Shown here: positions 1 to 14,652 of the stretch, one piece after another
Layout: each line of letters opens with the position of its first letter
Position numbering within the stretch: position 1 is the stretch's first letter
Source: a virus
Taxonomy: Duplodnaviria > Caudoviricetes
DNA length: 39,569 nt
IMG/VR virus record: IMGVR_UViG_3300025018_000275
Coordinates: 1 to 39,569 of that record
Direction: 5' to 3' (one strand)
Notes under the pieces: generated by a model
The model's database searches: none
What the model was told of the DNA's origin: nothing
The model's input: only the letters and a program-made list of their open reading frames with translations
Program-made: the position numbers and the translations under genes

Positions 1-168
1 CCCGCCGGTCGTCTCCCGCCACCAGTGATACCAGTTCGACATGTACAGGCGCATCAGTTGCTAACCCGAACCTGCCGACTTCGCGGGCCGATATTCGGTG
101 GTTCGGCGTTATCGTAGGCGGCAACATCGCAAGTCACCGGAAGTTCGGGACGTTCATCGAACAGCAGC
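1..168. repeat. Terminal direct repeat, left copy (circular overlap with 39402-39569)
   Basis: Positions 1-168 equal 39402-39569 except T42 vs G39443. Confidence 0.97.
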
Positions 169-596
169 ACGGAGGCCTCCGGACTCGCCATGTCGGCAAC
201 GAGCTCTTCGTTGCAGTAAATCTTGAAGCCGGCCAGGTCATCGAGCGCCGAACCGTCGGTATTGACCGTCGGTGCCTGCCACTTTATCCCGGTCGGCGAC
301 AGTGGTGTCTTTCGCCAGGCGGGGGTTTTGACCGGCATCCACGACCAGTAAACCTGCTGACTCTCGGTCACGAGAAAGTTGCCAGGGCAATCCGATCCGG
401 CCAGCGTCGTCTTGTCGCCGACATCGATGCCGCCTCGATAGCAGCGCCAGTCAAGAGCCGATTTGCCGTAAAACTGCTGGTAACACGCCTGTCCGACGCA
501 AAGAATCGGCTCGTCTGCGTTGGCATCAGGCAGGTCGGCACGTGCGAATGCGATCGTGGCAAGAAGAACGGTTAGCAGGGAAAAGAAACGGGTCAT
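54..596 (-). CDS. Secreted/periplasmic protein with signal peptide and possible C-terminal FN3-like beta-sandwich
   Basis: N-terminus MTRFFSLLTVLLATIAFARA looks like a Sec signal ending in AxA. GGAGGA RBS upstream on the - strand. WQAPTVNTDGSALDDLAGFKIY resembles FN3-like modules. Its stop overlaps the ATG of the 39000-39455 gene across the circular junction (TGATG). Confidence 0.7.
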   Translation of the reverse strand: MTRFFSLLTVLLATIAFARADLPDANADEPILCVGQACYQQFYGKSALDWRCYRGGIDVGDKTTLAGSDCPGNFLVTESQQVYWSWMPVKTPAWRKTPLSPTGIKWQAPTVNTDGSALDDLAGFKIYCNEELVADMASPEASVLLFDERPELPVTCDVAAYDNAEPPNIGPRSRQVRVSN

Positions 597-695
597 GACT
601 TCCTCCGGGCTGAGGTTGATACAGTAAAAATACAGTACTTTTGTTGCCCGCGAAGATTATCAAAAATCCAGCATTAGCGACTGACAGAGCTCGGC

Positions 696-728
696 CATTC
701 TTATTGCATTGTTATTACATTGTTATTA
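696..728 (+). repeat. Three tandem AT-rich 11-mers, putative DNA unwinding element
   Basis: CATTCTTATTG (696-706), CATTGTTATTA (707-717), CATTGTTATTA (718-728). Confidence 0.8.
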
Positions 729-745
729 TTAAGCAGCCCGTTTTC

Positions 746-754
746 TGTGGATAA
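746..754 (-). promoter_or_regulatory. DnaA box (perfect, R1-like position)
   Basis: TGTGGATAA, i.e. TTATCCACA on the - strand. Confidence 0.85.
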
Positions 755-773
755 CTACAACAATCGATTGAAA

Positions 774-786
774 TATCAAATACTTG
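774..786 (+). promoter_or_regulatory. IHF binding site
   Basis: TATCAAATACTTG matches WATCAANNNNTTR exactly and has an AT-rich upstream flank. Confidence 0.75.
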
Positions 787-789
787 TCC

Positions 790-840
790 TGTGAATAAAG
801 CGTGGATAAAACGTGGATAAGTCGAAATTCCTGTGGATAA
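790..840 (-). promoter_or_regulatory. Array of four co-oriented DnaA boxes
   Basis: TGTGAATAA (790), CGTGGATAA (801), CGTGGATAA (812), TGTGGATAA (832). The first three are at an 11-bp period. Confidence 0.8.
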
Positions 841-899
841 CTTTCATCTTTCAGAAAAAAAACGCTGGAACCTTAAACAAACCTGGGGTTTCAACATAA

Positions 900-1142
900 T
901 CAGGCACCGGGATCGCCATCCACAAGATCAAATATCGGGTCGTGGATCGCGCCCAGGCTGAGCGCCCGGTCGTAATAAAAATAAAGGCAGCGGGCGTCAG
1001 GGCGCGACAGTGCGCTCGCGCCGACCTCGGCCCGGGACAGCGTTGAATACGAAATGCCGGTGTCCTGAGCGACCTGTCGCAGCGTCAGGCCGAGTTCCTC
1101 CCGATGCCGGCGCAAGCGGGTTTTCTGTCGGGGTTTTGCCAT
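900..1142 (-). CDS. XRE-family HTH regulator (Cro/CI-like, DNA-binding domain only)
   Basis: LRRHREELGLTLRQVAQDTGISYSTLSRAEVG is a typical HTH_XRE pattern. The gene is divergent from the early operon. Confidence 0.88.
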   Translation of the reverse strand: MAKPRQKTRLRRHREELGLTLRQVAQDTGISYSTLSRAEVGASALSRPDARCLYFYYDRALSLGAIHDPIFDLVDGDPGA

Positions 1143-1176
1143 GATCTGGATCCTTCAAAAAAAGTGACCTCGAGGG

Positions 1177-1205
1177 TTGCATGTTGCGGATGTAGCAACT
1201 AAAGT
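1177..1205 (+). promoter_or_regulatory. Rightward sigma70-like promoter whose spacer is an operator-like palindrome
   Basis: TTGCAT (1177-1182), 17 bp, TAAAGT (1200-1205). The spacer is GTTGC-N7-GCAAC (1183-1199). Confidence 0.6.
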
Positions 1206-1238
1206 GCAACAACGCTACAGCAACAACGAGGCCAGAAT

Positions 1239-1523
1239 ATGAAATCCGCAGATCTGATTCTCAAGCGCAATGCCGACGTGGAGGCGATGGCCGCCATCCT
1301 CGATATCGGTGCTGCCCGGGTCGCCGGCAAGGGCAGGCCCGCCCGGGCCGAGTGCCGGGACTACACCATGAATCGCATGTGCTCGCTGTCGCCGGCCACG
1401 CGCGCGTTCCTGGTACGGCTCGAGGCCAACACCACTGCCGAGCAGCTGGTCGCGCCGATCGAGTACGCCGGCGAGTACGTCGAGCGCATCACGGTCGGCC
1501 TGCTACGGAGGACTGCCGCATGA
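1239..1523 (+). CDS. Hypothetical protein, first early gene
   Basis: GAGG RBS. ATGA overlap with the next gene. Confidence 0.65.
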   Translation: MKSADLILKRNADVEAMAAILDIGAARVAGKGRPARAECRDYTMNRMCSLSPATRAFLVRLEANTTAEQLVAPIEYAGEYVERITVGLLRRTAA

Positions 1524-2392
1524 ACGATCAATCAGTCAAGGTGTACGCGAAGATGCACCTGCCGATGTCGGCCGAGGACGTTTCCGACCAGGTGCAGGCT
1601 ATCCAGCAGATCATGAGTCGAGTCATGAAGCCGGACGTCCATTACGGGGTCATCCCGGGAACCGGCAAGAACGCGAAGCCGACGCTGCTCAAAGCCGGCG
1701 CCGAGGCGCTGCTGTCGGCGTTTCGGATCGCCGTCGATCCGCAGATCGAAGACCTGTCGACCGAGGACGAGATACGCTACCGGGTCAAGGCGCGCGGCAT
1801 CCACATGATGACCGACACGCTGGTCGGCGTTGGCGTCGGCACGGCGTCCTCGCGTGAGGAAAAATACGCCTGGCAGGGCGCCACCGACACCGAGTACGAG
1901 GCCACCGAGACAAAAAACCGGCGAATCAAATACGGGTCGAAATGGCACCCGACCAACCGCGGCGAGCGGATTGAGACGCAGATCAAGCAGGTGCGCACGA
2001 ATCCTGCTGACAAAGAAAACACGATCCTGAAAATGGCCAAGAAGCGTGCTCAGATCGATCTTTGTCTGACCGCCCTGGCCGCGTCCGATTGCTTCTCGCA
2101 GGATCTGGAGGATCCGCACACGCTCGGCGAAGGCGCGCAGCCGCCAGCGCACCCGAAGGCCGCCAGCGCGCCACCACAGGCGCGCTCGAACGGCAATGGT
2201 GGAGGCGGCGGCCCGGGAAAAATCAGCGAAGCGCAATGCCGGCTGCTGCGCGTCAAATGCGACGATGCCGGCGTCAACGAGATCGACCTGGTCGCGCATT
2301 TCCACCTGACGGAGCTCGAGCAGATGCAGGCGTCGGAGGTCAACTCGGCGCTGGCCTGGCTCAAAGCCATTCACGAACCGCCCACCGCGTAG
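1520..2392 (+). CDS. Putative single-strand annealing protein/recombinase (Rad52/Erf/Sak-like superfamily, tentative)
   Basis: Start reassigned to ATG 1520 (GGAGG RBS). Conserved phage motifs HYGVIPG..KPTLLKAGAE and NTILKMAKKRA...SDCFSQDLED. Disordered linker plus a small C-terminal domain. Exonuclease genes lie nearby. Confidence 0.6.
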   Translation: MNDQSVKVYAKMHLPMSAEDVSDQVQAIQQIMSRVMKPDVHYGVIPGTGKNAKPTLLKAGAEALLSAFRIAVDPQIEDLSTEDEIRYRVKARGIHMMTDTLVGVGVGTASSREEKYAWQGATDTEYEATETKNRRIKYGSKWHPTNRGERIETQIKQVRTNPADKENTILKMAKKRAQIDLCLTALAASDCFSQDLEDPHTLGEGAQPPAHPKAASAPPQARSNGNGGGGGPGKISEAQCRLLRVKCDDAGVNEIDLVAHFHLTELEQMQASEVNSALAWLKAIHEPPTA

Positions 2393-2404
2393 GAGTAAAG
2401 CAAA

Positions 2405-2608
2405 ATGACCCGAGGAGAATTCGAACGCCTGGTCGAGGACGGCCCGTTCAACCTGACCGACCTGCAGGTGCAGGCGTGCAACCGCAACCAGCTGATCTCG
2501 CTGGTCGGGCTGATGCGCGCCGAGGCTTTGCGCGCCGAGGCCGCCCACGAGAGCGAGATCGATATGCTGGCAGGGATTGCCCTGCGCCGGGAACGCCGCC
2601 ATGCGTAG
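2405..2608 (+). CDS. Hypothetical protein
   Basis: AGGAG RBS. Fits operon packing. Confidence 0.65.
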   Translation: MTRGEFERLVEDGPFNLTDLQVQACNRNQLISLVGLMRAEALRAEAAHESEIDMLAGIALRRERRHA

Positions 2609-2876
2609 GCCATTTGCCGCCGATTACACCTGGCACATCAACGGCGCCGGGGACATCCACATCGTCGACCGGAATCTCGGCAACAAGTCGGTGACCAACG
2701 ACGCCGAGGGTGTCGTTGCGGACATGCTCGAGGCGGTGCGCGCGAAGTTCGGCCCGGAAGCATCGCTGGTCGGCAGGGTGATCACCTACACCGACAGCGA
2801 TGGCTCGATCGACCGCCTGCGCGTCGACGAGAACAGCCGGTTTGCCGGGTTCTCGCCGGCCCCGGTGCGCATATGA
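2601..2876 (+). CDS. Hypothetical protein
   Basis: ATG 2601 overlaps the upstream gene end. ATGA overlap downstream. Contains D..LGNKSVTNDAE.VV and YTDSDG.ID motifs. Confidence 0.65.
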   Translation: MRRPFAADYTWHINGAGDIHIVDRNLGNKSVTNDAEGVVADMLEAVRAKFGPEASLVGRVITYTDSDGSIDRLRVDENSRFAGFSPAPVRI

Positions 2877-3190
2877 GCCGGCCGGGCAAGGAGGCGCGTC
2901 GGTATACCAGCCGCGGCCGGGAGGTGCGCCTGGATCGTGCCGACAACCCGATCGAGACCGGCGTTGTCGAAACCATCCGGCGCTGTGGCGATCGGGAGAA
3001 TCTGCGCACCTACGGCGTGTTCGAGGTCAAGTTTTTTGACGACTCCGGCCGACGCAGGACCAAGACATTCAGCTACGGGCGCATCGAAACCTACACCAGG
3101 CGGCGACGCTTCGAGGCGATGCACGACGCCATCGAGTTCCGGCGCCGGTACGCGCAGGCGGTCATCAACGGGGAGAGTTTTAATCCATGA
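2873..3190 (+). CDS. AP2-like DNA-binding domain protein
   Basis: TGV...F..KF.DDSGRRRTKTFSYG...A...AIEFRR resembles phage AP2 domains. No HNH domain is attached. Confidence 0.5.
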   Translation: MSRPGKEARRYTSRGREVRLDRADNPIETGVVETIRRCGDRENLRTYGVFEVKFFDDSGRRRTKTFSYGRIETYTRRRRFEAMHDAIEFRRRYAQAVINGESFNP

Positions 3191-3414
3191 GCATGTACGA
3201 AAAAACCGAGGAATCGGTGTTCATCACGGCCAGGGTGCTGCGAACGACCGACAAGGCAATCCGCATCGCAACCCCGGATCGCGGTGGTCACGAAACGGCC
3301 TGCTGGATCCCGAAGTCGCAGATCCTGCAGTCCGATCCGCCGGAGCCGATGCCAGGCGATGAGCCGACCATGGAAATCTCCGGCTGGATCGCAGACGTAA
3401 AAGGGTTGATATGA
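3187..3414 (+). CDS. Conserved small phage protein
   Basis: TDKAI...WIPKSQI...I.GWIA..KGL pattern. ATGA overlap. Confidence 0.7.
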   Translation: MSMYEKTEESVFITARVLRTTDKAIRIATPDRGGHETACWIPKSQILQSDPPEPMPGDEPTMEISGWIADVKGLI

Positions 3415-3441
3415 CCGCCGATAATGGCATGATGTCGAAGA

Positions 3442-3494
3442 GCCGGGCGCGCTAACGCCCGGCCCTCCTGGTCAGAGCAGTCAGCAGAGGAGAC
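3442..3494. promoter_or_regulatory. Structured leader: GC hairpin plus possible anti-SD/SD pairing
   Basis: GCCGGGCG-cgctaa-CGCCCGGC (3442-3463), followed by CTCCT, which is complementary to the downstream AGGAG Shine-Dalgarno. Confidence 0.5.
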
Positions 3495-3498
3495 CGCC

Positions 3499-3543
3499 AT
3501 GACGTTCGCAAACAATACCAAATCCCCGGCCGGAGCGGTCTGA
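3499..3543 (+). CDS. 14-aa leader ORF (MTFANNTKSPAGAV) coupled to the nuclease gene
   Basis: GAGGAG RBS 6 nt upstream. Its stop overlaps the next ATG (TGATG). Confidence 0.45.
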   Translation: MTFANNTKSPAGAV

Positions 3544-4145
3544 TGCCGCTCGTCCAGGGCCTGTCGTTCGAACCGGACGACCACGTCTACCGCTATCGCG
3601 GCGCAAAAGTGCCGAGCGTCACCCAGATCCTCGAGCCATACGATGGCCTTGGCTTTGTCGACCCCGATCACCTGGCCATGCTCGCCGAGTTCGGCAACCA
3701 CGTGCACCAGGCGGTGCACCTGTGGAATATCGGCGACCTGGACGAGTCCACGCTGGCCCCGGCATTGTTGCCGTACCTGAACGGATGGCGACAGTACATC
3801 GAGGACACGCACGCCCAAATCATCGAGTCGGAAATGCGCGTGTTCAGCCCGACCATGCGCTACGCCGGCACGCTCGACTCGATCCTGCGAATCAAAAACG
3901 CCGAGCGGCTGGTGGATCTGAAAACAGGCGCGGCAATCCCGCGCACGGTCGGCCCGCAGACGGCGGCCTATGACCATGCTCGCCGAGAAGCGGCCGGCGG
4001 CCGGCTGATGAAACGCGGCTGCCTGCGCCTGACCGGCAAGGACGACGGCATTGGCTACACGTATCACCCGCTGAACGATCCGCGGGATTTCGAGGTGTTC
4101 AAGGCGGCGTTGTCGCTGCACCGTTGGCAACATGGAGAAAGGTGA
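3543..4145 (+). CDS. PD-(D/E)XK exonuclease (lambda-exo/Cas4-like phage nuclease)
   Basis: Motifs PSVTQIL, G..VH, ESE.RV, YAGTLD, LVDLKTG, Q.AAY. Confidence 0.85.
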   Translation: MPLVQGLSFEPDDHVYRYRGAKVPSVTQILEPYDGLGFVDPDHLAMLAEFGNHVHQAVHLWNIGDLDESTLAPALLPYLNGWRQYIEDTHAQIIESEMRVFSPTMRYAGTLDSILRIKNAERLVDLKTGAAIPRTVGPQTAAYDHARREAAGGRLMKRGCLRLTGKDDGIGYTYHPLNDPRDFEVFKAALSLHRWQHGER

Positions 4146-4150
4146 AAATC

Positions 4151-4717
4151 ATGAATGAAATAATGTTCTTCGATACCGAGACGACGGGGATTCCCGACTG
4201 GCGGCTGCCGTCAGACGATCCGGTTCAACCGCACCTGGTGCGCCTGGCAGCGGTTGTCGCCGATGCCGAGTCTCGCACCATCACTCAGCAGCTGGACTGT
4301 GTCGTGCGCCCGGACGGCTGGCAGATCCCGCAGGAGACGATCGACATCCACGGCATCACGATGGAAAAGGCGCAGGCCGACGGCATGCCCGAAAGCCTCG
4401 CGCTGCAAAATTTCCTCGCGCTCTGGAACGACAAGCACCGCGTCGCGCACAACACGACCTTCGACAATCGCATCATCAGGATCGCGACCAAGCGTTACAG
4501 CGACCAGGACACCATCAACGCCTGGCACAAGGGGGCCTATACCTGCACCGGGATCATGGCACGCAAGGCGATGGGCCTGAACAAAATGCCGAAGCTGACC
4601 GAGGCATACGCGCACTTCATGCGCCGTGAACTTGACAACGCCCACGACGCGATGGCTGATGCTGTTGCCTGCATGAACATCTATTTCGCCATGCAGGACA
4701 TCGAAGCGCGCGCCTGA
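4151..4717 (+). CDS. DEDDh 3'-5' exonuclease (DnaQ/Pol III epsilon-like)
   Basis: ExoI FDTETTG, ExoII AHNTTFD, ExoIII AHDAMAD. Alternative GTG start at 4142. Confidence 0.9.
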   Translation: MNEIMFFDTETTGIPDWRLPSDDPVQPHLVRLAAVVADAESRTITQQLDCVVRPDGWQIPQETIDIHGITMEKAQADGMPESLALQNFLALWNDKHRVAHNTTFDNRIIRIATKRYSDQDTINAWHKGAYTCTGIMARKAMGLNKMPKLTEAYAHFMRRELDNAHDAMADAVACMNIYFAMQDIEARA

Positions 4718-4751
4718 TCGGCCGCCGAAACCACCACCACAGGAGACGACT

Positions 4752-5687
4752 ATGGAAACCGCAAATGAACTGCCCGCCGAGGCCCGCAGCCCGGAGGTGC
4801 AGAAACTGACCAGCAGCGCCCTGCAGCTGGCCGACAATTACGAAAACTATTCGATCACCAATGCCGACGATTACCAGCTGGGTGCCGAGCATCTCAAGCA
4901 GATCAAGGCCGCGCAGGCCACGCTGAAGGGCAAACGCCTGGCAATCACCCGGCCGATGGACGCGGCCAAGAACGCGGTCATGGCGCTGTTCTCCGGGCCG
5001 CTCGCGCGCCTGGATGCAGCAGAGACACACGTCAAGCAGGCCATCGGCCAGTACCGCGACGAACAGCAGCGGATCGCCGACGCCAGGGCCCGGGCCGAGC
5101 GCGAGCGCGTCGAGAAGCAACAGCGCGAGCTGCGCGAAAAGGCTCGCAAGGCCGATGAGGCGGCGGCCAAAAAGCGCCGCGAAAAGATCGCGCGCGAGAA
5201 GGCCGAGGCCGAGGAAAAGGCCCGCATTGAACGCGAACGCCTGGCTGAGGAGCAGCGCCGGATCGATGCCGCCAAGAAACAGGCAGACGCCGAGGAGCGC
5301 GCGCGCCTGGAGGCCAAGCAGCGCCGGATCGACGAGGAACGCCGGCGCGAGGCCGAGCGAGAAGAGCAGGAGCAGGCCCGGTTGCACCAGGAGCAGATGG
5401 ACGCCGAGGCCGAGCAACTCGAGCGCACCGCGCGCGCCGAGGCGCTGGAGGCCAAGGCAGAGGCGATGGCGGCCACGCCGATCGCCAGCGAGGCGCCGAA
5501 GGTCGAGGGCATATCCGGCCGCAAGGTGTGGAAATACGCCGTTACTGATGCCGAGAAGATCCCGCGCAAATACCTGAAGATCGACGAAAAGAAACTCGGC
5601 CAGGTGGTCCGGGCCCTGAAGGACGACTGCGATATTCCGGGCATCCGGGTGTACGCAGAGACATCGATCGCGGCGCGCAAGGCGTGA
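4752..5687 (+). CDS. Long coiled-coil phage protein
   Basis: AGGAG RBS. E/K/R/A-rich helical middle. Conserved C-terminus W...V.D..KIPRKYL..DEKKL..VV...IPGI.VY. Confidence 0.75.
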   Translation: METANELPAEARSPEVQKLTSSALQLADNYENYSITNADDYQLGAEHLKQIKAAQATLKGKRLAITRPMDAAKNAVMALFSGPLARLDAAETHVKQAIGQYRDEQQRIADARARAERERVEKQQRELREKARKADEAAAKKRREKIAREKAEAEEKARIERERLAEEQRRIDAAKKQADAEERARLEAKQRRIDEERRREAEREEQEQARLHQEQMDAEAEQLERTARAEALEAKAEAMAATPIASEAPKVEGISGRKVWKYAVTDAEKIPRKYLKIDEKKLGQVVRALKDDCDIPGIRVYAETSIAARKA

Positions 5688-5989
5688 GCCAGGCGCAGCT
5701 GCAATTTAACGACGGGTATCCGGCCGGGTTTTTCTGGTGGCTCCGCAAGAACCGCCACATCTACCGGAAGTTCGTCGCGCTGTCGCTGCAGGCCAAACGG
5801 GCAGGCCAGAAACACTGGTCGGCCCGGGCGGTCATTCACGTCATGCGCTACCGGATGCAGATACGACAGCGCGGCGACCCGCTGTTTAAGATCAACAACA
5901 ATTACACGCCCGGCCTGGCACGCCTGGCAATGTCAGAAAACCCCGAGCTTTCCGGGTTTTTTCAAACCCGCGAACGCGCCGGGCAATAA
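5684..5989 (+). CDS. Conserved hypothetical phage protein (possibly DNA-binding)
   Basis: GTGA overlap. FKINNNY.P..AR..M...P...GFF..R motif. Confidence 0.7.
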   Translation: MSQAQLQFNDGYPAGFFWWLRKNRHIYRKFVALSLQAKRAGQKHWSARAVIHVMRYRMQIRQRGDPLFKINNNYTPGLARLAMSENPELSGFFQTRERAGQ

Positions 5990-6006
5990 CCACACGAGGA
6001 AATACG

Positions 6007-6648
6007 ATGAACAACATGGATCCCGCTCTGAAAAACGTTCTCGACAGCGACCCGATCATGGCATCGGCCGAAAAGGTCGGCCTGCGCCTGGTCGAAACGC
6101 TGATCAACGAGCTCACGCTGATTCCGCACCCGACGGTGAGAAACCAGTCGGTCTGGTCGGCGATGCCGGAGAACATGCAGGCCGACGTACTCGACCGCAT
6201 GCAGAGGCGCATTCGCAACGAGATCGAGCTCGGCTATGAGCAGATATTCCGGTACGAGACGCCGGCCGTGCGCGCCGAGCTTGCGAAGGTAACCTTCCAG
6301 GCCGGCAAGGTGCAGGGCACGCTGGAGATCCCGACGACGTCCAAGCACCGGCACGAGCTCTCGGATTTTGCCGGCCGCCACGTGATCGTCGTGTTGCCCG
6401 CGGACCTCGAGGAGTATTTCGAGGACATGGCCGACATCGTCGCCGAAGCCGACCAGGCCGAGCTCGATCTGAACGACCCGGACGAAAACTACGATGCCGA
6501 CGGGCCCGGCGATCTTAGCGCCGAGGAACGCCGCGCGGCCGGACTTCCGGATCCTGGCTGCAAGACCTGCGCTGGCACCGGCGAGGTGAAGGCCAGCAAC
6601 CGCGACGGCACGTTTGTGATCGAGCCTTGCCCGGTCTGCATGTCATGA
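6007..6648 (+). CDS. Hypothetical protein with C-terminal DnaJ-type Cys zinc finger
   Basis: GAGGA RBS. CKTCAGTG...CPVC at the C-terminus after an acidic linker. Confidence 0.7.
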   Translation: MNNMDPALKNVLDSDPIMASAEKVGLRLVETLINELTLIPHPTVRNQSVWSAMPENMQADVLDRMQRRIRNEIELGYEQIFRYETPAVRAELAKVTFQAGKVQGTLEIPTTSKHRHELSDFAGRHVIVVLPADLEEYFEDMADIVAEADQAELDLNDPDENYDADGPGDLSAEERRAAGLPDPGCKTCAGTGEVKASNRDGTFVIEPCPVCMS

Positions 6649-6977
6649 GCGCCGAGGCGAGGAAAAACCCGTTCGATGATCCGGTCGTGTTTGATCAGCT
6701 TCGGCATATCTCCGAGTCCGGGCGCAAGGCGGTGTGCGCTGATCAGATTGCCGTTTTTGTATCCAAATCGGACGGCACGGAGTCCGGGGTTTACTCGACG
6801 CTGTGCGTTGGCGGCGATCCGGGCAAGGACGCTAACCTGCGGATAATCATGCGGCTGGCAGAAACCATCGGAAAATTTTTGCAGGTCGCGTCCGACGGAC
6901 AGGTCAGATTGAAAATGATCTCCCCGACGAAAGAGATCGTCCTTGGCGAGACCGATATCACCGGAGAATTCAGATGA
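6645..6977 (+). CDS. Hypothetical protein
   Basis: ATGA overlaps at both ends. Confidence 0.6.
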   Translation: MSAEARKNPFDDPVVFDQLRHISESGRKAVCADQIAVFVSKSDGTESGVYSTLCVGGDPGKDANLRIIMRLAETIGKFLQVASDGQVRLKMISPTKEIVLGETDITGEFR

Positions 6978-7591
6978 ACGTGCGCCCGATCATGTTCAGA
7001 ACATCGATGGTGCAGGCCCTGATCGAAGGCCGGAAGACACAAACGCGAAGAATTGTGAAGCCGCAGCCGAACGATAAGCCACAAGAACCGGAATTTTTAT
7101 CGGCGTGTAGATACGGCCGCCCCGGCGACCTGCTGTGGGTCAGAGAGACGTTTTGTGAATCGCCCGACGGCCCAATCTATCGGGCATCGAAAGAAGAGGC
7201 CGGACAGCTAGAGCCCGCCGATCGAATCGTCTGGAAACCGTCCATTTTCATGCCGCGCGCCCTGAGCCGACTGACGCTTCGAATCACCGATGTTCGCGTG
7301 CAGCGGGTGCAGGATCTGAGCGCCAACGAAGTGTTTGCCGAGGGTGTGCAGATTCCGTGCGACGCCGACACCGGGCGACCGCTAATGCAAATATCTGGCA
7401 AGCACGCCCCATCGTCCTATTTGCCGAATCCGCCTTATCCGGGTGACATCCCCGAGCATGATTTTGTACTGGCGCACTGGGGCGCGTTGTGGGGCTCGGT
7501 AAACGGCCGGGACAAATGGAACGAAAATCCATGGCTCTGGGCGCTGACGTTCGAGGTCATCAGGGCGAACGTCGACGAGGTGTGCAAATGA
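6974..7591 (+). CDS. ASCH/PUA-like phage protein
   Basis: Motifs PIMF...MV.A...GRKTQTRR, G.PGD.LWVRETF, WKPSIFMPR..SR.TL.ITDVRVQR.QD, NPW.W..F. Confidence 0.8.
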   Translation: MNVRPIMFRTSMVQALIEGRKTQTRRIVKPQPNDKPQEPEFLSACRYGRPGDLLWVRETFCESPDGPIYRASKEEAGQLEPADRIVWKPSIFMPRALSRLTLRITDVRVQRVQDLSANEVFAEGVQIPCDADTGRPLMQISGKHAPSSYLPNPPYPGDIPEHDFVLAHWGALWGSVNGRDKWNENPWLWALTFEVIRANVDEVCK

Positions 7592-7872
7592 CCAAAGACA
7601 CGGAAATTCCGCCGGAGGTCCGGGCCTGGGCAAACGAAATAGCCACGATCATCGAGTCGGCGCTTCCGGAAGGCGCGCTGTTTCCACTGATCATCACGCT
7701 GCTTGCCCGTGCAGAAGGTGAAGGTCGAATGAACTACATCAGCAACGCTGACCGAGCCTACATGGCGTGCCTGCTCAGGGAAGTGGCTGCCAGGCTCGAA
7801 GGCCAGCCGGAAATGAGCGGAACCGTCGGACGGCTCCGGGCCATTCTGCTGCTGGCCCGCATTCTGGGATAA
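7588..7872 (+). CDS. Hypothetical protein
   Basis: ATGA overlap at 7588. R.NYISNA.R..M...L.E..AR.EG motif. Confidence 0.65.
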   Translation: MTKDTEIPPEVRAWANEIATIIESALPEGALFPLIITLLARAEGEGRMNYISNADRAYMACLLREVAARLEGQPEMSGTVGRLRAILLLARILG

Positions 7873-7953
7873 CCAGGCGCGCGCGGACATCTCCATCAAG
7901 GCAGAAAAGATCGCAAGAATCGGCGGCGACCCGATGGACGCGGTGCCGTGGCG

Positions 7954-8169
7954 ATGAAGACATTTACCGTGATTCTATCTGCGGTGCTGGTGTTCGTGAC
8001 GATGCTCCTGGTCGGCACCGTAGAGCGATTGGTGCGGACGGAGCGGCCGATCACCCTGGTTCACAAATGCGAGGGCGGTGTGACGATCATCGAGCCGCAG
8101 GACGACGGATCGATCCTGCTGACCGGAGAGCCGTTCTGGAACCGGAAGTTTGCGGGGGTCGGGCCGTGA
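7954..8169 (+). CDS. Small membrane/secreted protein
   Basis: Hydrophobic N-terminus MKTFTVILSAVLVFVTMLLVG. Confidence 0.5.
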   Translation: MKTFTVILSAVLVFVTMLLVGTVERLVRTERPITLVHKCEGGVTIIEPQDDGSILLTGEPFWNRKFAGVGP

Positions 8170-9005
8170 ACGACGTTACGCGCAAATACCCGCGTTTGGA
8201 GTTTGGCGTCGAGAGGCTGACGCCGGAACTGGCGAACGAGTACCTGTGCAAAAATCCGAGCAATCGGAAATTGTCAAAGGCCGCTGTCAGGCGATGGGCC
8301 GATGCGATGCGCGCCGGCCACTGGCAAGTCAACGGTGAATCGATCAAGTTCAACACCGCCGATGAACTGGTCGATGGCCAGCACCGGCTGAAAGCTGTTG
8401 TCGTTTCTGGCGTCACCATCGATTCGATCGTGATCCGCGGACTGGAAAAGACGGCATTCGAAACGCTCGACGCCGGCAAGGGACGAAGCGGCGGCGACTG
8501 CCTCTATATTCTCGATTACAAGAACCCCAATGCGCTGGCTGCCGCCGCCCGGATGCTCATCAAATACGAAACGCCATACTGGGGGAAAACGGCGGTCAGG
8601 CACATGGCAAAGCCAAGCAATAATGATCTGTTGGCCGCTGTCGAACGGCACCCGGGTTTGTCCCATTTCGGCAATAAATACATGCTGCGCCCGCAGTTCA
8701 CGTCACTGATCCCGCATAGCGTTGGAATGTTTTGCTATTACCTGGCGACCCGGGTCGACGAGGCGCGTGCGAAGGAATTCTTTGTGGCCCTGTCGTCCGG
8801 CGAAGGCCACGAGGTGCCGGTGCGCCTGCATGAAGTCCTCGAAGAACGGCGGCAGGAATACATCAAGCCGACCAGCGACGAGAAATGCGCCTGGGTGATC
8901 CAGGCATGGAACGCCTATTACAACGGCAAACCGCTGCGTCGCCTGTCGAGAATCGTCGAGACCGTGCCTCGCTTTCATCCTGATCCGGTGCCGGCAAAGG
9001 CATGA
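8166..9005 (+). CDS. ParB/Srx-like (DGQHR) N-terminal domain protein
   Basis: GTG start with GTGA overlap. NR.LS...V...A.AM..G.W..NGE.I.F...L.DGQHRL.AVV.SG. Confidence 0.8.
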   Translation: MNDVTRKYPRLEFGVERLTPELANEYLCKNPSNRKLSKAAVRRWADAMRAGHWQVNGESIKFNTADELVDGQHRLKAVVVSGVTIDSIVIRGLEKTAFETLDAGKGRSGGDCLYILDYKNPNALAAAARMLIKYETPYWGKTAVRHMAKPSNNDLLAAVERHPGLSHFGNKYMLRPQFTSLIPHSVGMFCYYLATRVDEARAKEFFVALSSGEGHEVPVRLHEVLEERRQEYIKPTSDEKCAWVIQAWNAYYNGKPLRRLSRIVETVPRFHPDPVPAKA

Positions 9006-9373
9006 CCGCAGGAAAACGCAAGCCCGCGCGGCGCAAGTACCGCAACCAGCCGACGAACATCGACGGCATCCGGTTCGACTCGAAACGCGAGGCAAAACGC
9101 TACGCCGAGCTGCTCACGCTGCAAAAAGCGCGCATGATCAGCGGCCTGAAGACACAGCCGAGATTCCCGATCGAGATCGGCGGCGTGATCGTCCGGCACG
9201 TCTCGCAGCGCGGAGCGACCGGCGTGCAGGTAGTCTACGTTGCCGATTTTCAATACCGGGATCTGGAAACCGGAAAAACCGTGATCGAGGACTCGAAAGG
9301 CGTCCGCACCGAGGGCTTCAAACTGAAAAAGGCCATGATGAACGCCATGGGCCTGGAGGTAATCGAGACATGA
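9002..9373 (+). CDS. DUF1064-like putative endonuclease
   Basis: KY.N...DGI.FDSK.EA.RY..L, Y.ADF.Y, EDSKG..T..F.LKK. Confidence 0.85.
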   Translation: MTAGKRKPARRKYRNQPTNIDGIRFDSKREAKRYAELLTLQKARMISGLKTQPRFPIEIGGVIVRHVSQRGATGVQVVYVADFQYRDLETGKTVIEDSKGVRTEGFKLKKAMMNAMGLEVIET

Positions 9374-9594
9374 GCGCAGACGACACAGAAGTGAAAAACA
9401 TCAAGAATCTCAACGACAAGGTGCTGCTCAAAGCCGGCCAGGACTGCGTCAAGGGCCGCATCATTCACGTCGGCATCGACTCGGGCGGGCCGATCTACCT
9501 GGTCGAATACGCCACCGTCGAGGGCCTGATTCTCGAACGCTGGACCAGACCGGCCGACCTGATCGACTTGGACGGACCACACGAGACATTCTAA
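9370..9594 (+). CDS. Hypothetical protein
   Basis: ATGA overlap with GGAGG upstream. Confidence 0.6.
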   Translation: MSADDTEVKNIKNLNDKVLLKAGQDCVKGRIIHVGIDSGGPIYLVEYATVEGLILERWTRPADLIDLDGPHETF

Positions 9595-9604
9595 AACCAG
9601 CGCC

Positions 9605-9778
9605 ATGCCCAGAGACGAACATCGCGGCTGCAGAAAGGTGCCGTACAAAACGCAGGCCAAGGCCCGCAAGGCGATCAAACGCGTGCACAGCCGCGCCGAG
9701 ACCGCCGTGTACTGGTGCCAGCCGTGCCAGGCGTATCACCTGACCAGCAGCCGGCCATGGGACCGGGAGACGAAATGA
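9605..9778 (+). CDS. 57-aa basic zinc-finger protein (absent from the ORF track)
   Basis: Translates to MPRDEHRGCRKVPYKTQAKARKAIKRVHSRAETAVYWCQPCQAYHLTSSRPWDRETK. C...CxxC...H ligands. Fills the gap and overlaps the next ATG (ATGA). Confidence 0.75.
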   Translation: MPRDEHRGCRKVPYKTQAKARKAIKRVHSRAETAVYWCQPCQAYHLTSSRPWDRETK

Positions 9779-10212
9779 AAAAAACAAATGTGATGTGTCC
9801 ATATTGCGCCAAGCCGGCGGTGTTGGCCGATAGTGCCGAGGTGTACCACGGCCGCAGCTACGGAATGATCTGGATCTGCAGGCCATGTGGCGCGTACGTC
9901 GGATGCCACAAAAACAGCAAGGATCATGCGCCAAAAGGGTCGCTGGCGAACGCAGAACTTCGGCCGCTACGGATCGCGGCACATGCTGCATTTGACCCTC
10001 TTTGGAAATCTGGAGATATGAAGCGAAAGGAGGCATACGCATGGCTCAAGGCCGCGCTGGATGTTGATTTCCCCATTCATATCGGCGAGAGCGATGTCGA
10101 CATGTGTCACCGAATCATTACCGCCTGTGCTAATCATCAGGACGTTCCACGTGAAACCATCCAGCGGTCGTCATTGACGGACCGACAGCCCAAGGACAGA
10201 ATCGATCGATGA
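9775..10212 (+). CDS. DUF3268-like zinc-finger protein
   Basis: CPYC...C..C.AYVGCH...P.G.LAN.ELR..R..AH..FDPLW...AY.WL...HIG. Confidence 0.85.
   Translation: MKKTNVMCPYCAKPAVLADSAEVYHGRSYGMIWICRPCGAYVGCHKNSKDHAPKGSLANAELRPLRIAAHAAFDPLWKSGDMKRKEAYAWLKAALDVDFPIHIGESDVDMCHRIITACANHQDVPRETIQRSSLTDRQPKDRIDR
10143..10158. promoter_or_regulatory. Chromosomal-type parS site
   Basis: cGTTCCACGTGAAACc versus consensus TGTTNCACGTGAAACA. The 14-bp core matches and only the outer positions differ. Confidence 0.6.
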
Positions 10213-11558
10213 AAAAGAAAACGACCGCCCGGAAAAAGCCGCTCCCACTGCCTGTCGACATGCCTGACGGCGTAACCAGGGAAGACGTCACGCTCGATCC
10301 GCTGACGCTGATCCCGTACATCAACAATGCCCGAAAACACACCGAGGAACAGGTGCTCGAAATCGCTGCATCGATCCGAGAATGGGGATTTACCAACCCC
10401 ATCCTGATCGACGAAAACAACGAGATGATCGCCGGCCACGGGCGCCAGCGCGCCGCCATCAAACTGCAGCTAACGGCCGTTCCATGTGTCCGCCTGGTCG
10501 GGCTTAATAAAACCCAGAAAAGGGCGCTGATCCTTGCAGATAACAGGATTGCCGAAAATGCGTCATGGGATGAAGACCTGCTCAAACTGGAGCTTGCCGA
10601 TCTCAATCTGAACGATTTCGATCTATCGCTGATCGGCTTCGGCCAGGATGAATTGGACCGGCTGCTGGCGCCGGAACCGGCGGATGAAGATCACGCCAAC
10701 TCAATACCGCAGCTGGAAGATGTCGCAATTACCCGTGCTGGAGATGTTTGGGTATTAGGCAGCCACAAAGTCATGTGCGGTGACTCATCGATCGCAGAAA
10801 ACTGGTCTATCGTCATGGCGGGCCTGCATGCGGCGCTGTTAATCACGAGTCCGCCGTATAACCAAAAACTGGACACATTCAAGCCGAGCGGGATGCAGAA
10901 GGAAAATCCAGCATGGGTGCAACGAATGGCGCAGAGCTATTCGGACTCGTTACCTGAAGAAGAATATCGCACAAAACAGATAGAACTAATGACGACGATT
11001 CGTGCATTCATGACTGACGATGCATCGCTGTTTTATAACCATAAAATCAGGTACCGAGACAAACAGATCATGCATCCAATTGAATTCGTATCGAAATTTC
11101 CTTACAGAATCAGGCAGGAAATCGTCTGGGCGCGGCCTGGATCGATCACTTTGAATGCAAGAATGTTCATGCCCAGGGACGAAAGAATTTATTGGCTGAC
11201 TTGCAGCGAGACATTCAAATTCAACGATTCCACGGATATCAAAAAGCTGTCATCAGTATGGGATATCGTGCCCAATGTAGACGTTAAGATCAGCGCACCA
11301 TTTCCGGTATCGTTGCCGACGCGATGTATTGATGCATGTTCCGTGGCTGGCGATATCGTTGTCGATCCTTTTTGCGGGAGCGGTACGACCCTGATCGCGG
11401 CAGAGTCGAAGCGTCGCCAGTGCATCGGCATGGAGGTCAACCCGCATTATGTCGACGTTATTATCAGACGCTGGCAGGATTTCACCGGCAATGAGGGTGT
11501 ATTGGAGGAAACCGGGCAGACGTTCGCCAGTGTCCGCGACGATCGGGCGAAGTCATGA
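10209..11558 (+). CDS. ParB-N domain fused to an amino-DNA methyltransferase (N4C/N6A, beta order)
   Basis: N-terminal NNARKH...GFTNPILID...IAGHGR...ADNRIAE. Catalytic TSPPY precedes SAM-binding DPFCGSGTT. Located just upstream of TerS. Confidence 0.9.
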   Translation: MKKKTTARKKPLPLPVDMPDGVTREDVTLDPLTLIPYINNARKHTEEQVLEIAASIREWGFTNPILIDENNEMIAGHGRQRAAIKLQLTAVPCVRLVGLNKTQKRALILADNRIAENASWDEDLLKLELADLNLNDFDLSLIGFGQDELDRLLAPEPADEDHANSIPQLEDVAITRAGDVWVLGSHKVMCGDSSIAENWSIVMAGLHAALLITSPPYNQKLDTFKPSGMQKENPAWVQRMAQSYSDSLPEEEYRTKQIELMTTIRAFMTDDASLFYNHKIRYRDKQIMHPIEFVSKFPYRIRQEIVWARPGSITLNARMFMPRDERIYWLTCSETFKFNDSTDIKKLSSVWDIVPNVDVKISAPFPVSLPTRCIDACSVAGDIVVDPFCGSGTTLIAAESKRRQCIGMEVNPHYVDVIIRRWQDFTGNEGVLEETGQTFASVRDDRAKS

Positions 11559-12013
11559 GCGAAGACGACACAGGCGTCAAGATCGGCCGGCCGACAAAAT
11601 ACTATCCGGAACTGTGCGACGAGCTGCCGCACATGTTCAAGGACGGAGAGTCGCTGGCCGAGGTGTGCGCCTACCGGCTCGGCGTCACCCAGAAAACCTT
11701 CCTCGAATGGGTGCATAAATACCCGGAGTTTGCAGAGGCATACGATGCTGCGCGCACGATATCGGAAGCCTGGTGGACCAAGTGCGGCCGGGCAATGACG
11801 CTCGGAAAACTGCCGGGCGCAATTCCAGCGTCATGGATATTCAACATGAAAAACCGCTTCGGATGGCGCGACAAGATCGATCATACTGTTCGTGACGGCA
11901 CCAACGCGCCGCGACTCATTGAAGGCGACATGACCGAGGCCGAGGCCGCCGAGGCGTATCGTGCCGAACTGCGCAACGACCCGATCGAGGGCGAGGCGAA
12001 GCGAATACACTGA
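11555..12013 (+). CDS. terS: Terminase small subunit
   Basis: GRPTKY, an HTH-like segment, WIFNMKNRFGWRDK. Directly upstream of TerL. Confidence 0.8.
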   Translation: MSEDDTGVKIGRPTKYYPELCDELPHMFKDGESLAEVCAYRLGVTQKTFLEWVHKYPEFAEAYDAARTISEAWWTKCGRAMTLGKLPGAIPASWIFNMKNRFGWRDKIDHTVRDGTNAPRLIEGDMTEAEAAEAYRAELRNDPIEGEAKRIH

Positions 12014-14652
12014 TGGCCGGCGGCGCACAGCTGCAGGAGTTGGCCGAAGAGTACATTTGGCCGCCTGAAACGGTGGATGAATTTGCCAGGCGACAGAGAT
12101 TGATCAGGCGCGTTCGAGCAGACACCGAAGGCCCTGCTAAGGCCCGCGCGTTCTACAAACACCATCCGGTCGAGTTCATTTGTGATTTTGCGATCACCTA
12201 CGATCCGCGCAACGTCGCACTCGGCCGCTCGCCGACGATGCCGTTCACGCTGTTTCCGATACAGGTTCTGCTCGTCGAGTGGCTGCACGAGCGCATCAAG
12301 ACCGAGCGGTCCGGACTCATCGAAAAATCCCGCGACATGGGCGCGACGTTTACCGCCTGCGCGTTTGCGGTCTGGCTGTGGCTTTTCTGGCCCGGCGCGT
12401 CGGTCGGGTTCGGATCGCGTAAGGAAATGCTGGTCGATACGAAGGGCGACCCAGACAGCATCTTCGAGAAAATCCGCATGATCATCGCCAATCTGCCGGA
12501 CTTCCTGTTGCCGGCCGGCCTGTCGCCACGTGATCATCTGACCTACATGAAATGCATCAACCCGGAAACCGGGTCGACCATCACCGGGGAGGCAGGCGAC
12601 AACATTGGCCGCGGCGGGCGCAAACTGATGTATTTCAAAGACGAGGCGCAGCCGCTCAGCGCCCGGGTGCTGACGCCGTCCGGCTGGACCCGCATGCGCG
12701 AGCTTCACGTCGGTGGCCAGGTGATCGGGCGCGACGGCAAAGCGCAGGCGATTACGCACATCAACGACTGCGACGGCGCCCAGGTCTATCGATTCCGGTT
12801 TAGCGACGGCTCGACCGTCGAGTGCAGCGAAAACCATTTGTGGAGCGTCGAGAAATCGTGGGGCAAAAAGAAACCGCTTACCCTGCGCGCGCACGAGATT
12901 GCCGAGACATTTGTCTACGACTCGCCGCTCGGACAACGGCAGTACCGATACAGGATCCCGGCATGCGCGCCGGTCGTGTTCGAGGCTGGCAAACGACCGC
13001 TGTCGCTCGATCCTTACGTCGTCGGAGTACTGCTCGGCGCCGGGACCGTCCACCGGGCGCCGACGTACCGGCCGACGTTCCTGGCAGCAGACCCGAGAAT
13101 CGCGGACCAGGTCGACATGCTGCTGCCGGAAGGCTGTCGATGCCGGGAAATGGCCCGGGATGGCCAGTACGAGATCGGGCCACCGCCCGGCTCGTCGACG
13201 GTCGGCAGGATCAGCGTGATCGGCAACGCGGTCGTGCGCTCCGGGATCGCCGGGCAGGCGGAGGATTCAAAATCAATCCCGCACCGCTACCTGACCGCGT
13301 CGAAAAACAAGCGCCTGGCACTGCTGCAAGGCCTGTCCGACGCTGTCAGCGGATGGTCGAGCGACGTCACGCAGTTCCGGTGCCGCTCGGTCCAGCTGGC
13401 CGAGGACGTTCGATTCCTGGTCGAGTCCCTGGGTGGAATCGCGACGATCAAGAAGCCGGCGGACCGACTGGCAAAGGCCGCCACGTTTATCGTCAAGATC
13501 ACGATGCCGACGTCTGGAAAGAAGCCGCTCTACCGGACGATCACTGGCGTGACCGCGATCGGGGTCCAGCCCGTCCGCTGCATAACGGTTGCCAACGACG
13601 ACGGCCTGTATCTGACCGACCACTGCGTCGCCACGCACAACAGCGCCCACTACGAGCGCCCGGAGCTCATCGAGGCGGCGCTGGCCGATAACACGAACGT
13701 GCAGATCGACATGAGCAGCGTCTGCGGCGCCGAGAATGTGTTTTTCCGCAAGCGCCACAGCGGCATGGTCGATCTGTTCATCATGGACTGGCGCGATCAC
13801 CCGGCCAAAACGCAGGAATGGCACGACCGGCGGTTTGCCGAGGCCGAGGCGGCGGGCCTGTCGCATATCTTTGCCCAGGAGGTCGACCGTGACTACACGG
13901 CGGCCGTCGAGGGCATCCTGATCCCCAGAAAGTACGTGGATGCCGCTGTCGACGCACACGAGCGGCTGGGGCTGGAAATCGTCGGGTCCGAGCGCGTCGG
14001 GTTCGACGTGGCCGATGAAGGCGGCGACACCAACGCGCTCGTGCGCACCAAGGGCATCCTCGTCCACCATGCGGACCAATGGGCCATGGGCGACCCGGCA
14101 CAATCGACCCTCCGGGTGTTCAACTACTGTATCGAGAACGGCATCGACCGGATGACCTACGACTCTGTCGGCGTCGGCGCCGGCGTCAAGGGCAAGGTGC
14201 GCGAGCTGCTGGCGATGGAGCAGTACCAGGACGTGAAACTGCAGGTCGAGCCGTTTTCGGCCGGAGGGAAGGTCTGGCAGCCAAAAAAGGAATTTGTCGA
14301 GGGCAAGCGCAACGAGGATATGTTTTCGAATATCAAGGCGCAGGTATGGTGGTGGCTGTTTCTGCGATTTCAGAAAACCTATCTGGCTGTGCACCACGGA
14401 AACGAATACCCGGCTGACGAGCTGATTTCGTTATCGTCGAAGATGCCGCTGCTCAACGAACTCAAGACCGAGCTTTCTCGGCCGAAACGGGATGAGGACG
14501 GTGCGGGCCGGATCAAGGTAGAATCCAAGCGCGACATGAAAAAGAGAAACGTATCTTCCCCGAACATCGCCGAGGCACTGGTCATGTGCTATGCGCCGGC
14601 TCAGGCGCGCCGTCGACAGGTTCGCGTCATGACGGTCGGGCCGCGAACATGA
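12013..14652 (+). CDS. terL: Terminase large subunit containing an intein (about 547 aa after splicing)
   Basis: Walker A-like EKSRDMGAT, GRGGR, Walker B MYFKDE|SAH split by the intein, nuclease GFDVADEGGD, C-terminal SPNIAEAL. Confidence 0.93.
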   Translation: MAGGAQLQELAEEYIWPPETVDEFARRQRLIRRVRADTEGPAKARAFYKHHPVEFICDFAITYDPRNVALGRSPTMPFTLFPIQVLLVEWLHERIKTERSGLIEKSRDMGATFTACAFAVWLWLFWPGASVGFGSRKEMLVDTKGDPDSIFEKIRMIIANLPDFLLPAGLSPRDHLTYMKCINPETGSTITGEAGDNIGRGGRKLMYFKDEAQPLSARVLTPSGWTRMRELHVGGQVIGRDGKAQAITHINDCDGAQVYRFRFSDGSTVECSENHLWSVEKSWGKKKPLTLRAHEIAETFVYDSPLGQRQYRYRIPACAPVVFEAGKRPLSLDPYVVGVLLGAGTVHRAPTYRPTFLAADPRIADQVDMLLPEGCRCREMARDGQYEIGPPPGSSTVGRISVIGNAVVRSGIAGQAEDSKSIPHRYLTASKNKRLALLQGLSDAVSGWSSDVTQFRCRSVQLAEDVRFLVESLGGIATIKKPADRLAKAATFIVKITMPTSGKKPLYRTITGVTAIGVQPVRCITVANDDGLYLTDHCVATHNSAHYERPELIEAALADNTNVQIDMSSVCGAENVFFRKRHSGMVDLFIMDWRDHPAKTQEWHDRRFAEAEAAGLSHIFAQEVDRDYTAAVEGILIPRKYVDAAVDAHERLGLEIVGSERVGFDVADEGGDTNALVRTKGILVHHADQWAMGDPAQSTLRVFNYCIENGIDRMTYDSVGVGAGVKGKVRELLAMEQYQDVKLQVEPFSAGGKVWQPKKEFVEGKRNEDMFSNIKAQVWWWLFLRFQKTYLAVHHGNEYPADELISLSSKMPLLNELKTELSRPKRDEDGAGRIKVESKRDMKKRNVSSPNIAEALVMCYAPAQARRRQVRVMTVGPRT
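12646..13641 (+). mobile_element. Class 3 intein (332 aa) with degenerate LAGLIDADG homing endonuclease
   Basis: Starts AQPLSARVLTPSGW. Block B CSENHLW, block F VRCITV, block G ATHN followed by Ser. HEN motifs VLLGAG and GLSDAVSG. Confidence 0.9.

Follow-up and report, generated by a model that had tools for sequence, protein, structure and literature searches.

The window analysed here, the whole 39,569-nucleotide stretch of IMG/VR record IMGVR_UViG_3300025018_000275, belongs to a contractile-tailed phage whose profile matches assign its head genes to the HK97 type and describe its tail genes as Mu-like. CheckV treats the record as linear and 74% complete, and a 168-bp end repeat with one mismatch bears out the 39,401-bp circle proposed in an earlier sequence-only reading of this DNA. 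The features with which we are concerned lie near the left end of the record, between an uncharacterised gene and an HTH gene (Table 1), and each element that the earlier reading had listed between 696 and 840 was recovered at its coordinate. The 11-mers of the predicted DUE are CATTCTTATTG at 696 and CATTGTTATTA at both 707 and 718, and the last TTATT of this element lies at -20 from the DnaA box at 746. Read on the plus strand, the DnaA boxes of the module are of the TGTGGATAA type; the box at 790 matches TTATNCACA without mismatch and those at 801 and 812 with one mismatch each. Two further repeats were noted nearby: a TACAGTA direct repeat with an 11-bp period, possibly a protein site, at 620-637 about 60 bp to the left of the DUE, and GTTGC/GCAAC inverted and direct repeats, likely operators, at 1177-1232 between the divergent HTH gene and the early operon.

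Table 1. Features of the putative origin module and genes referred to in the text, by position in the window.
Feature	Position	Strand	Remarks
Uncharacterised gene, 180 aa, hydrophobic N-terminus	54..596	-	Transcribed away from DUE, start 100 bp off
Predicted DUE, AT-rich	696..730	+	Three tandem 11-mers; TTATT/TTGT motifs on upper strand; 80% A+T
Spacer, 15 bp, last TTATT to first box	731..745	+	Length equals E. coli oriC spacer
DnaA box, perfect, R1-equivalent	746..754	-	Sequence match
IHF consensus TATCAAATACTTG, exact	774..786	+	19 bp past box 746; offset +28
Three co-oriented DnaA boxes, 11-bp period (+44, +55, +66)	790..820	-	0-1 mismatches
DnaA box, perfect	832..840	-	Offset +86
XRE-type HTH gene, 80 aa	900..1142	-	Faces array; marker of slot compared in relatives
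RAD52-like single-strand annealing protein (predicted), not initiator	1520..2392	+	Best ten matches RAD52, E 0.014-0.031, none <0.001
Two exonuclease genes, PD-(D/E)XK-like and DnaQ-like	3543..4717	+	Profile matches
ParB/Srx-fold protein (predicted), not initiator fold	8166..9005	+	Best matches ParB/Noc, best E 0.0037
Holliday junction resolvase	9002..9373	+	phrog_190, E 2.6e-29

The signal of the module is the clustering and spacing of its motifs, which singly are weak. Across the window, 12 boxes with at most one mismatch correspond to chance level (24 of 100 shuffles), as does one IHF match (28 of 100 shuffles). The only two occurrences of TTATCCACA, the only three of TTATNCACA and the only exact IHF consensus in the 39.6-kb window are nevertheless all found in the module, with both perfect TTATCCACA boxes and the IHF consensus packed within 95 bp. 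At least three co-oriented boxes arose in none of 5000 dinucleotide shuffles of 597-899, compared to the five observed, and simulation of 3 Mb from this AT-rich stretch produced no relaxed box-IHF-box layout. The least stable 100-bp window of the whole circle is the one at 700, and at 25-40 bp the 11-mers rank second in instability to a site at approximately 35,940-35,950; this least stable 25-40-bp stretch of the genome (35939-35978) sits within a 544-aa late gene. Cumulative GC skew on the circle, put forward with the earlier reading as a check, proved uninformative and gave no sign of an origin at the module: in GC, AT, purine and keto skews alike, coding-strand bias dominates and no usable origin signal was found.

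For comparison with a chromosomal origin, offsets were measured from the first DnaA box (746 in the phage), using E. coli oriC as the reference. In the phage, TTATT lies at -20, the IHF site at +28 and co-oriented boxes at +44, +55, +66 and +86; in E. coli oriC, TTATT lies at -20, IHF at +27 and R5M at +55, with weak sites at +44, +66, +77 and +88 that we take to be tau1, tau2, I1 and I2, respectively. The sequence-only reading had likened the module to the left half of an E. coli-type oriC, and the agreement turns out to be closer than it had stated (-20/-20, +28/+27 and +55/+55). The module has the upper-strand TT[A/G]T motifs in its DUE, the DUE-to-R1 spacing and an IHF site between R1 and a box at the R5M position (+55) that characterize the oriC unwinding module, and of the 11-bp array that runs through the I1 and I2 positions it occupies +44, +55 and +66, leaves +77 empty and has its last box, at +86, 2 bp off +88. 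Element order, orientation and the strand that bears TTATT and TTGT are likewise shared with the oriC left half ('Left-DOR'), as are the directions of the flanking genes, one of which leaves the DUE and the other faces the array. Because spacer identity between the phage and E. coli oriC is only 0.33-0.35, it is the spacing that has been kept and not the sequence. As a side observation, the arrangement of genes 54-596 and 900-1142 resembles that of mnmG and mioC on either side of E. coli oriC, with the DUE-side gene starting about 100 bp off.

The module also departs from E. coli oriC in several respects. It has 11-mers where E. coli has 13-mers, and its boxes are near consensus where the E. 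coli sites are weak (0-1 mismatches each at +44, +55 and +66 versus 4, 1 and 5 in E. coli). It has no +77 box, and the middle box (R2) and inverted right-half array of oriC are absent, 841-1240 holding only two isolated inverted sites with two mismatches. The GATC cluster used for Dam/SeqA control, a feature of Dam-positive gammaproteobacteria, was not found in 597-899, which contains no GATC versus 11 in E. coli oriC, a zero that in 303 bp is not significant alone; genome-wide, 378 GATC sites were observed and 365 expected. The chromosomal context of dnaA and mnmG/gidA was not found either, as phage genes lie on both sides of the module and there is no dnaA. E. coli datA and DARS2 combine DnaA boxes with an IHF site, as does the module, but datA has its boxes far to either side of the IHF site and no adjacent DUE. 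Judged by its layout, the predicted module is akin to the oriC left half and differs in kind from a complete chromosomal oriC, from O/P and iteron replicons and from datA. According to the available text of one study, unwinding is blocked when 1 bp is inserted or 2 bp are deleted between DUE and R1, and a truncated left part of oriC is able to load DnaB (PMC3287180); the accessible portion of another describes the oriC left half as driving unwinding and binding one DnaB, with DnaA binding TTGT and TTATT (PMC9198467), and excerpts of a third mention boxes equivalent to tau1 in the origins of Vibrio and Pseudomonas, with IHF outcompeting DnaA at tau1 (PMC10325909).

Comparison of 59 ORFs with PHROGs and Pfam and of 30 ORFs with NCBIfam revealed no initiator, helicase, primase or polymerase, and DnaA, integrase, PolA, DnaB and HTH_36 gave no match when searched for in six frames. 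The same PHROGs threshold does detect the initiators of relatives; profile absence is a weak sign, in that DnaB was detected in only 8, and HTH_36 in only 2, of 22 near-complete relatives. No iteron array was found in 1-12,000, among the best 20 of 52 direct-repeat families, or in the sequence of 600-900. The earlier suggestion that the phage has no initiator or iterons is supported by the ORF, six-frame and repeat searches; a small unrecognised helper may still exist. The companion suggestion, that host DnaA, IHF and DnaB suffice alone, agrees with the finding of no phage initiator but leaves out further host factors that are needed besides these three, namely the helicase loader, primase and polymerase III.

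Turning to the remaining genes, the 290-aa protein is RAD52-like and the 279-aa protein ParB-like in fold, both by matches above E 0.001. ParB-fold proteins are thus present, and neither ParA nor a plasmid-type Rep was found among the 59 ORFs with PHROGs and Pfam. For a 213-aa early protein, 2 of the 30 homologues examined bear an FtsK-gamma domain. For the 94-aa first early ORF, Protein Atlas gave no usable match, several early ORFs of 60-110 aa have no assignment, and a PDB sequence search with alignment A1 returned no match. A tyrosine integrase was absent from the six-frame search and a serine recombinase from the 59 ORFs; because the HTH gene is placed like cro, and cI and integrase were not found, the gene content suggests a lytic phage. 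The large terminase gene (12013-14652, 879 aa) probably contains an intein at about residues 216-570, as indicated by a weak Hint-domain match and by split terminase matches, and a 'DnaC-like' PHROG match falls inside it.

Relatives were sought through the annealing protein, the capsid and the ParB-like protein, which reached only distant, mosaic phages. The annealing protein led to 160 other loci and the ParB-like protein to 80, of which none had the full module, and a close DnaA-box pair was present in 3 of 50 whole records and in none of 22 near-complete relatives. Among all loci fetched, the flanking HTH gene was matched only in L242, L252 and L162 (36-42% identity). In L252 and L162, an O-like initiator gene (PHROGs E 5e-4 and 2e-7) that contains internal DnaA boxes and short repeats lies beside the HTH gene, and a tblastn search of the window with these initiators gave nothing better than E 0.12. 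The L242 slot contains no gene but a pair of converging DnaA arrays with an 11-bp period; this contig starts inside the left array, so any DUE or IHF site is not visible. Lambda O/P-type replicons such as those of L252 and L162 share with the window the slot beside the HTH gene and the orientation of the DnaA boxes. Their origin, however, is contained in an O-like initiator gene that has repeats, whereas the slot of the window is gene-free with a DUE and an IHF site. As L252 and L162 are close kin, slot exchange rests on two lineages, and it appears to be the best indirect sign that the slot is a replication module.

In viral contigs more broadly, a box-IHF-box pattern matched 30 contigs. Although the pattern allowed five offsets, the IHF site was at +27/28 in each of the 16 non-redundant matches, 9 of which also had a box at +55; by our reading these 16 represent about nine lineages, which corresponds to approximately 3e-4 under a flat null. 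The upstream stretch was at least 76% A+T in 8 of the 16; two are cut by contig ends. We annotated 14 representatives (133 of 149 ORFs) using PHROGs, which is not a test for host genes, and found packaging or phage replication genes in 13, the exception, L004, having only unknown and sugar-modifying phage families. The layouts closest to that of the window are in L013 (+43, +55, +67 and +86) and L027 (+43, +55 and +85). The two complete carriers that encode PolA have no AT-rich DUE, most other carriers are fragments, and a DnaB-like helicase is encoded by 9 of 20 box-IHF-box carriers. In five podovirus-like contigs (L024, L020, L012, L007 and L019), genes for a short DnaB-like helicase, ERF and ribonucleotide reductase lie downstream of a complete DUE-box-IHF-array module. 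Two tandem box-IHF-array units 148 bp apart, with a strong DUE only at the first, occur in L013 (7881-8081), L014 and L021.

Flat box-to-IHF spacing and the abundance of bare DnaA arrays weigh against generalising from these matches. An unbiased box-IHF scan found flat spacing, with 9 of 95 pairs at +27/28 and no enrichment in viral contigs, and an unbiased two-box scan, sampled at 121 loci (108 non-redundant), found 11-12-bp phasing with IHF at +27/28 in 3. Phased DnaA arrays with peaks at multiples of 11-12 bp are estimated at about 3500 stretches in viral contigs. A DUE-anchored scan returned 12 loci, made up of 5 A+T-rich giant-virus-like coding matches without arrays, 6 contigs already matched and 1 partial match (L440). 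Matches to DnaA-box-like arrays also came from Lactococcus 949-type phages, from gokushoviruses and other Microviridae, from T5-like phages and from the left ends of Microbacterium phages, and the end region of the T7-like Berlinvirus Escherichia phage nasanit (PV245933.1, L439 4011-4113) holds six co-oriented DnaA boxes and no exact IHF site.

An oriC-like layout in a genome with no recognisable DNA-copying genes makes it likely that replication is started by host DnaA, and we consider that 696-840 is probably a replication origin that is fired by host DnaA and IHF, copies the left half of oriC and works without a phage initiator. This reading builds on the layout, the circular genome, the gene content and the slot in relatives, and takes each protein-DNA step from the E. 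coli ssDUE-recruitment model. It is further favoured by the recurrence of the box-IHF-box layout in viral contigs and by the missing AT-rich DUE in the two complete carriers with PolA. It is weakened by the lack of the whole module in the relatives' loci, by the flat box-to-IHF spacing in viral contigs, by DnaA arrays in phages that have their own replisome, by the DnaB-like helicase of 9 of 20 carriers and by the GC skew. Host ATP-DnaA would occupy box 746 and the phased array, IHF would bend the DNA between them, and the AT-rich 11-mers would melt, with their TTATT/TTGT strand held by DnaA through ssDUE recruitment. Host DnaB would then be loaded by the host loader and the circle copied by host primase and polymerase III; with a left half only, the simplest prediction is one helicase and one fork. 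Near-consensus boxes and the lack of GATC would allow repeated firing and let the phage outcompete the host origin, and the annealing protein, exonucleases and resolvase would yield concatemers for packaging. We also lean, with some reserve, towards a broader proposal in which phages of this kind form a class of tailed phages that have lost their own initiator, each in effect a viral minichromosome running on an up-tuned oriC left half with host DnaA and IHF alone. In this proposal the cassette is interchangeable with O-like initiator genes at a single slot and would be found again in several phage lineages that are unrelated.

The module could instead be an origin at which DnaA and IHF only assist, while a small unrecognised phage protein, such as the 80-aa HTH protein, the product of the 94-aa first early gene or that of another short ORF, licenses firing or loads DnaB, as in iteron plasmids. 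The iteron replicons P1, pSC101 and F are assisted by DnaA and IHF and need their own Rep protein and iterons; they share with the window DnaA boxes, AT-rich repeats, a bending-protein site and use of the host replisome, but their Rep and iterons were not found in it. A phage helper would fit with the relatives that pair their own initiator with DnaA boxes, with the unassigned short early ORFs and with the TACAGTA direct repeat at ~620-637, and because lytic growth needs many firings such a helper may be required. We nonetheless hold this arrangement to be unlikely, given that no iteron array appeared among the best 20 of 52 repeat families of 1-12,000, that tblastn placed none of the relatives' initiators in the window at an E value below 0.12 and that the layout is already complete for the DnaA-only opening described in the available text of PMC9198467 and PMC3287180.

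A second possibility is that the boxes disturb host initiation, acting either as a datA-like DnaA sink or decoy or as a site at which DnaA is used while the DNA enters, with the phage replicating by another route such as recombination-dependent restart. The boxes are indeed near consensus, the phage has a full recombination set, and phased arrays are common in viral contigs, including those of T7-like and T5-like phages. The T5 injection-stop region holds DnaA boxes, according to the portion of PMC13250531 available, and both it and the T7-like end region are, like the module, non-coding DnaA-box clusters in phages; these phages differ in encoding their own replication proteins, and the T7-like array has no exact IHF site. 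Against a sink, datA sets its boxes far to either side of its IHF site, a sink has no need of a DUE at a fixed 15-bp distance, and no other origin or initiator was found in the genome. We regard this role as quite doubtful, although titration of DnaA could be a side effect of the module.

Very little speaks for the module being a DnaA- and IHF-controlled promoter region that ties expression of the leftward gene 54-596 to the host cell cycle: it fills the only space upstream of this gene, but no sigma-70-like promoter was found in 500-1235, promoter control does not require oriC spacings and the flanking genes differ among other carriers. It is just as implausible that the module arose as an assembly chimera or is a functionless remnant of a host chromosome origin, a reading left some room by the facts that the sequencing run (X1, labelled aquifer metagenome) may be of the same sample and that the host oriC lay outside the comparison, but countered by a separately assembled contig of this run that covers 1-4000 unbroken, by short contigs from two other studies that are identical over 373-675 and 633-783, by the absence of host genes flanking the module and by the same layout among phage genes in other contigs. 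Two contigs of run X1 (23,821 and 15,589 bp) cover the circle except for about 16 bp and one of them crosses the ends of the record, while runs X2-X7 contained only small shares of the stretch. A chimera is thus unlikely because contigs of a second assembly span both the module and the ends of the record; historically, the module may descend from a captured oriC.

To our knowledge, the phage replicons described in textbooks encode an initiator or polymerase of their own. The nearest precedent that we encountered for an origin fired by host DnaA is Pseudomonas phage PseuGes_254, in which a region with DnaA boxes and AT-rich repeats is likewise proposed as an origin (PMC11512268); this origin is an Ori-Finder software prediction only, the phage encodes its own primase and PolA, and the available text of the report describes no IHF geometry. 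A tested initiator-free DnaA phage origin was not found in the full-text literature searched, which includes few subscription papers or older reviews. If true, firing by no more than host DnaA and IHF would be a further way for phages to replicate and could be the reason why some phage genomes have no replication genes. The module would also constitute a natural 145-bp left-half origin with strong boxes, in which the sufficiency of the left half can be tested in vivo, and it bears on how repeated firing escapes cell-cycle control.

An origin of this kind would further tie host range to compatibility with DnaA, IHF and the helicase loader and would make the phage a direct competitor of the host origin. 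Host searches gave no host and no cultured relative was found; a blastn search with 690-850 against cultured phages and plasmids gave short chance matches only. Dependence on IHF would point to Proteobacteria, Nitrospirae or Nitrospinae, going by the available text of PMC10325909. A strict phage-like pattern had two matches in 185,579 prokaryote genomes, in Moorellaceae and Persephonella bins, and these offered no clue to the host. The match in the Persephonella bin (L158, 2501-2564) is an intergenic box-IHF-box cluster with many inverted boxes and may be that bacterium's own origin.
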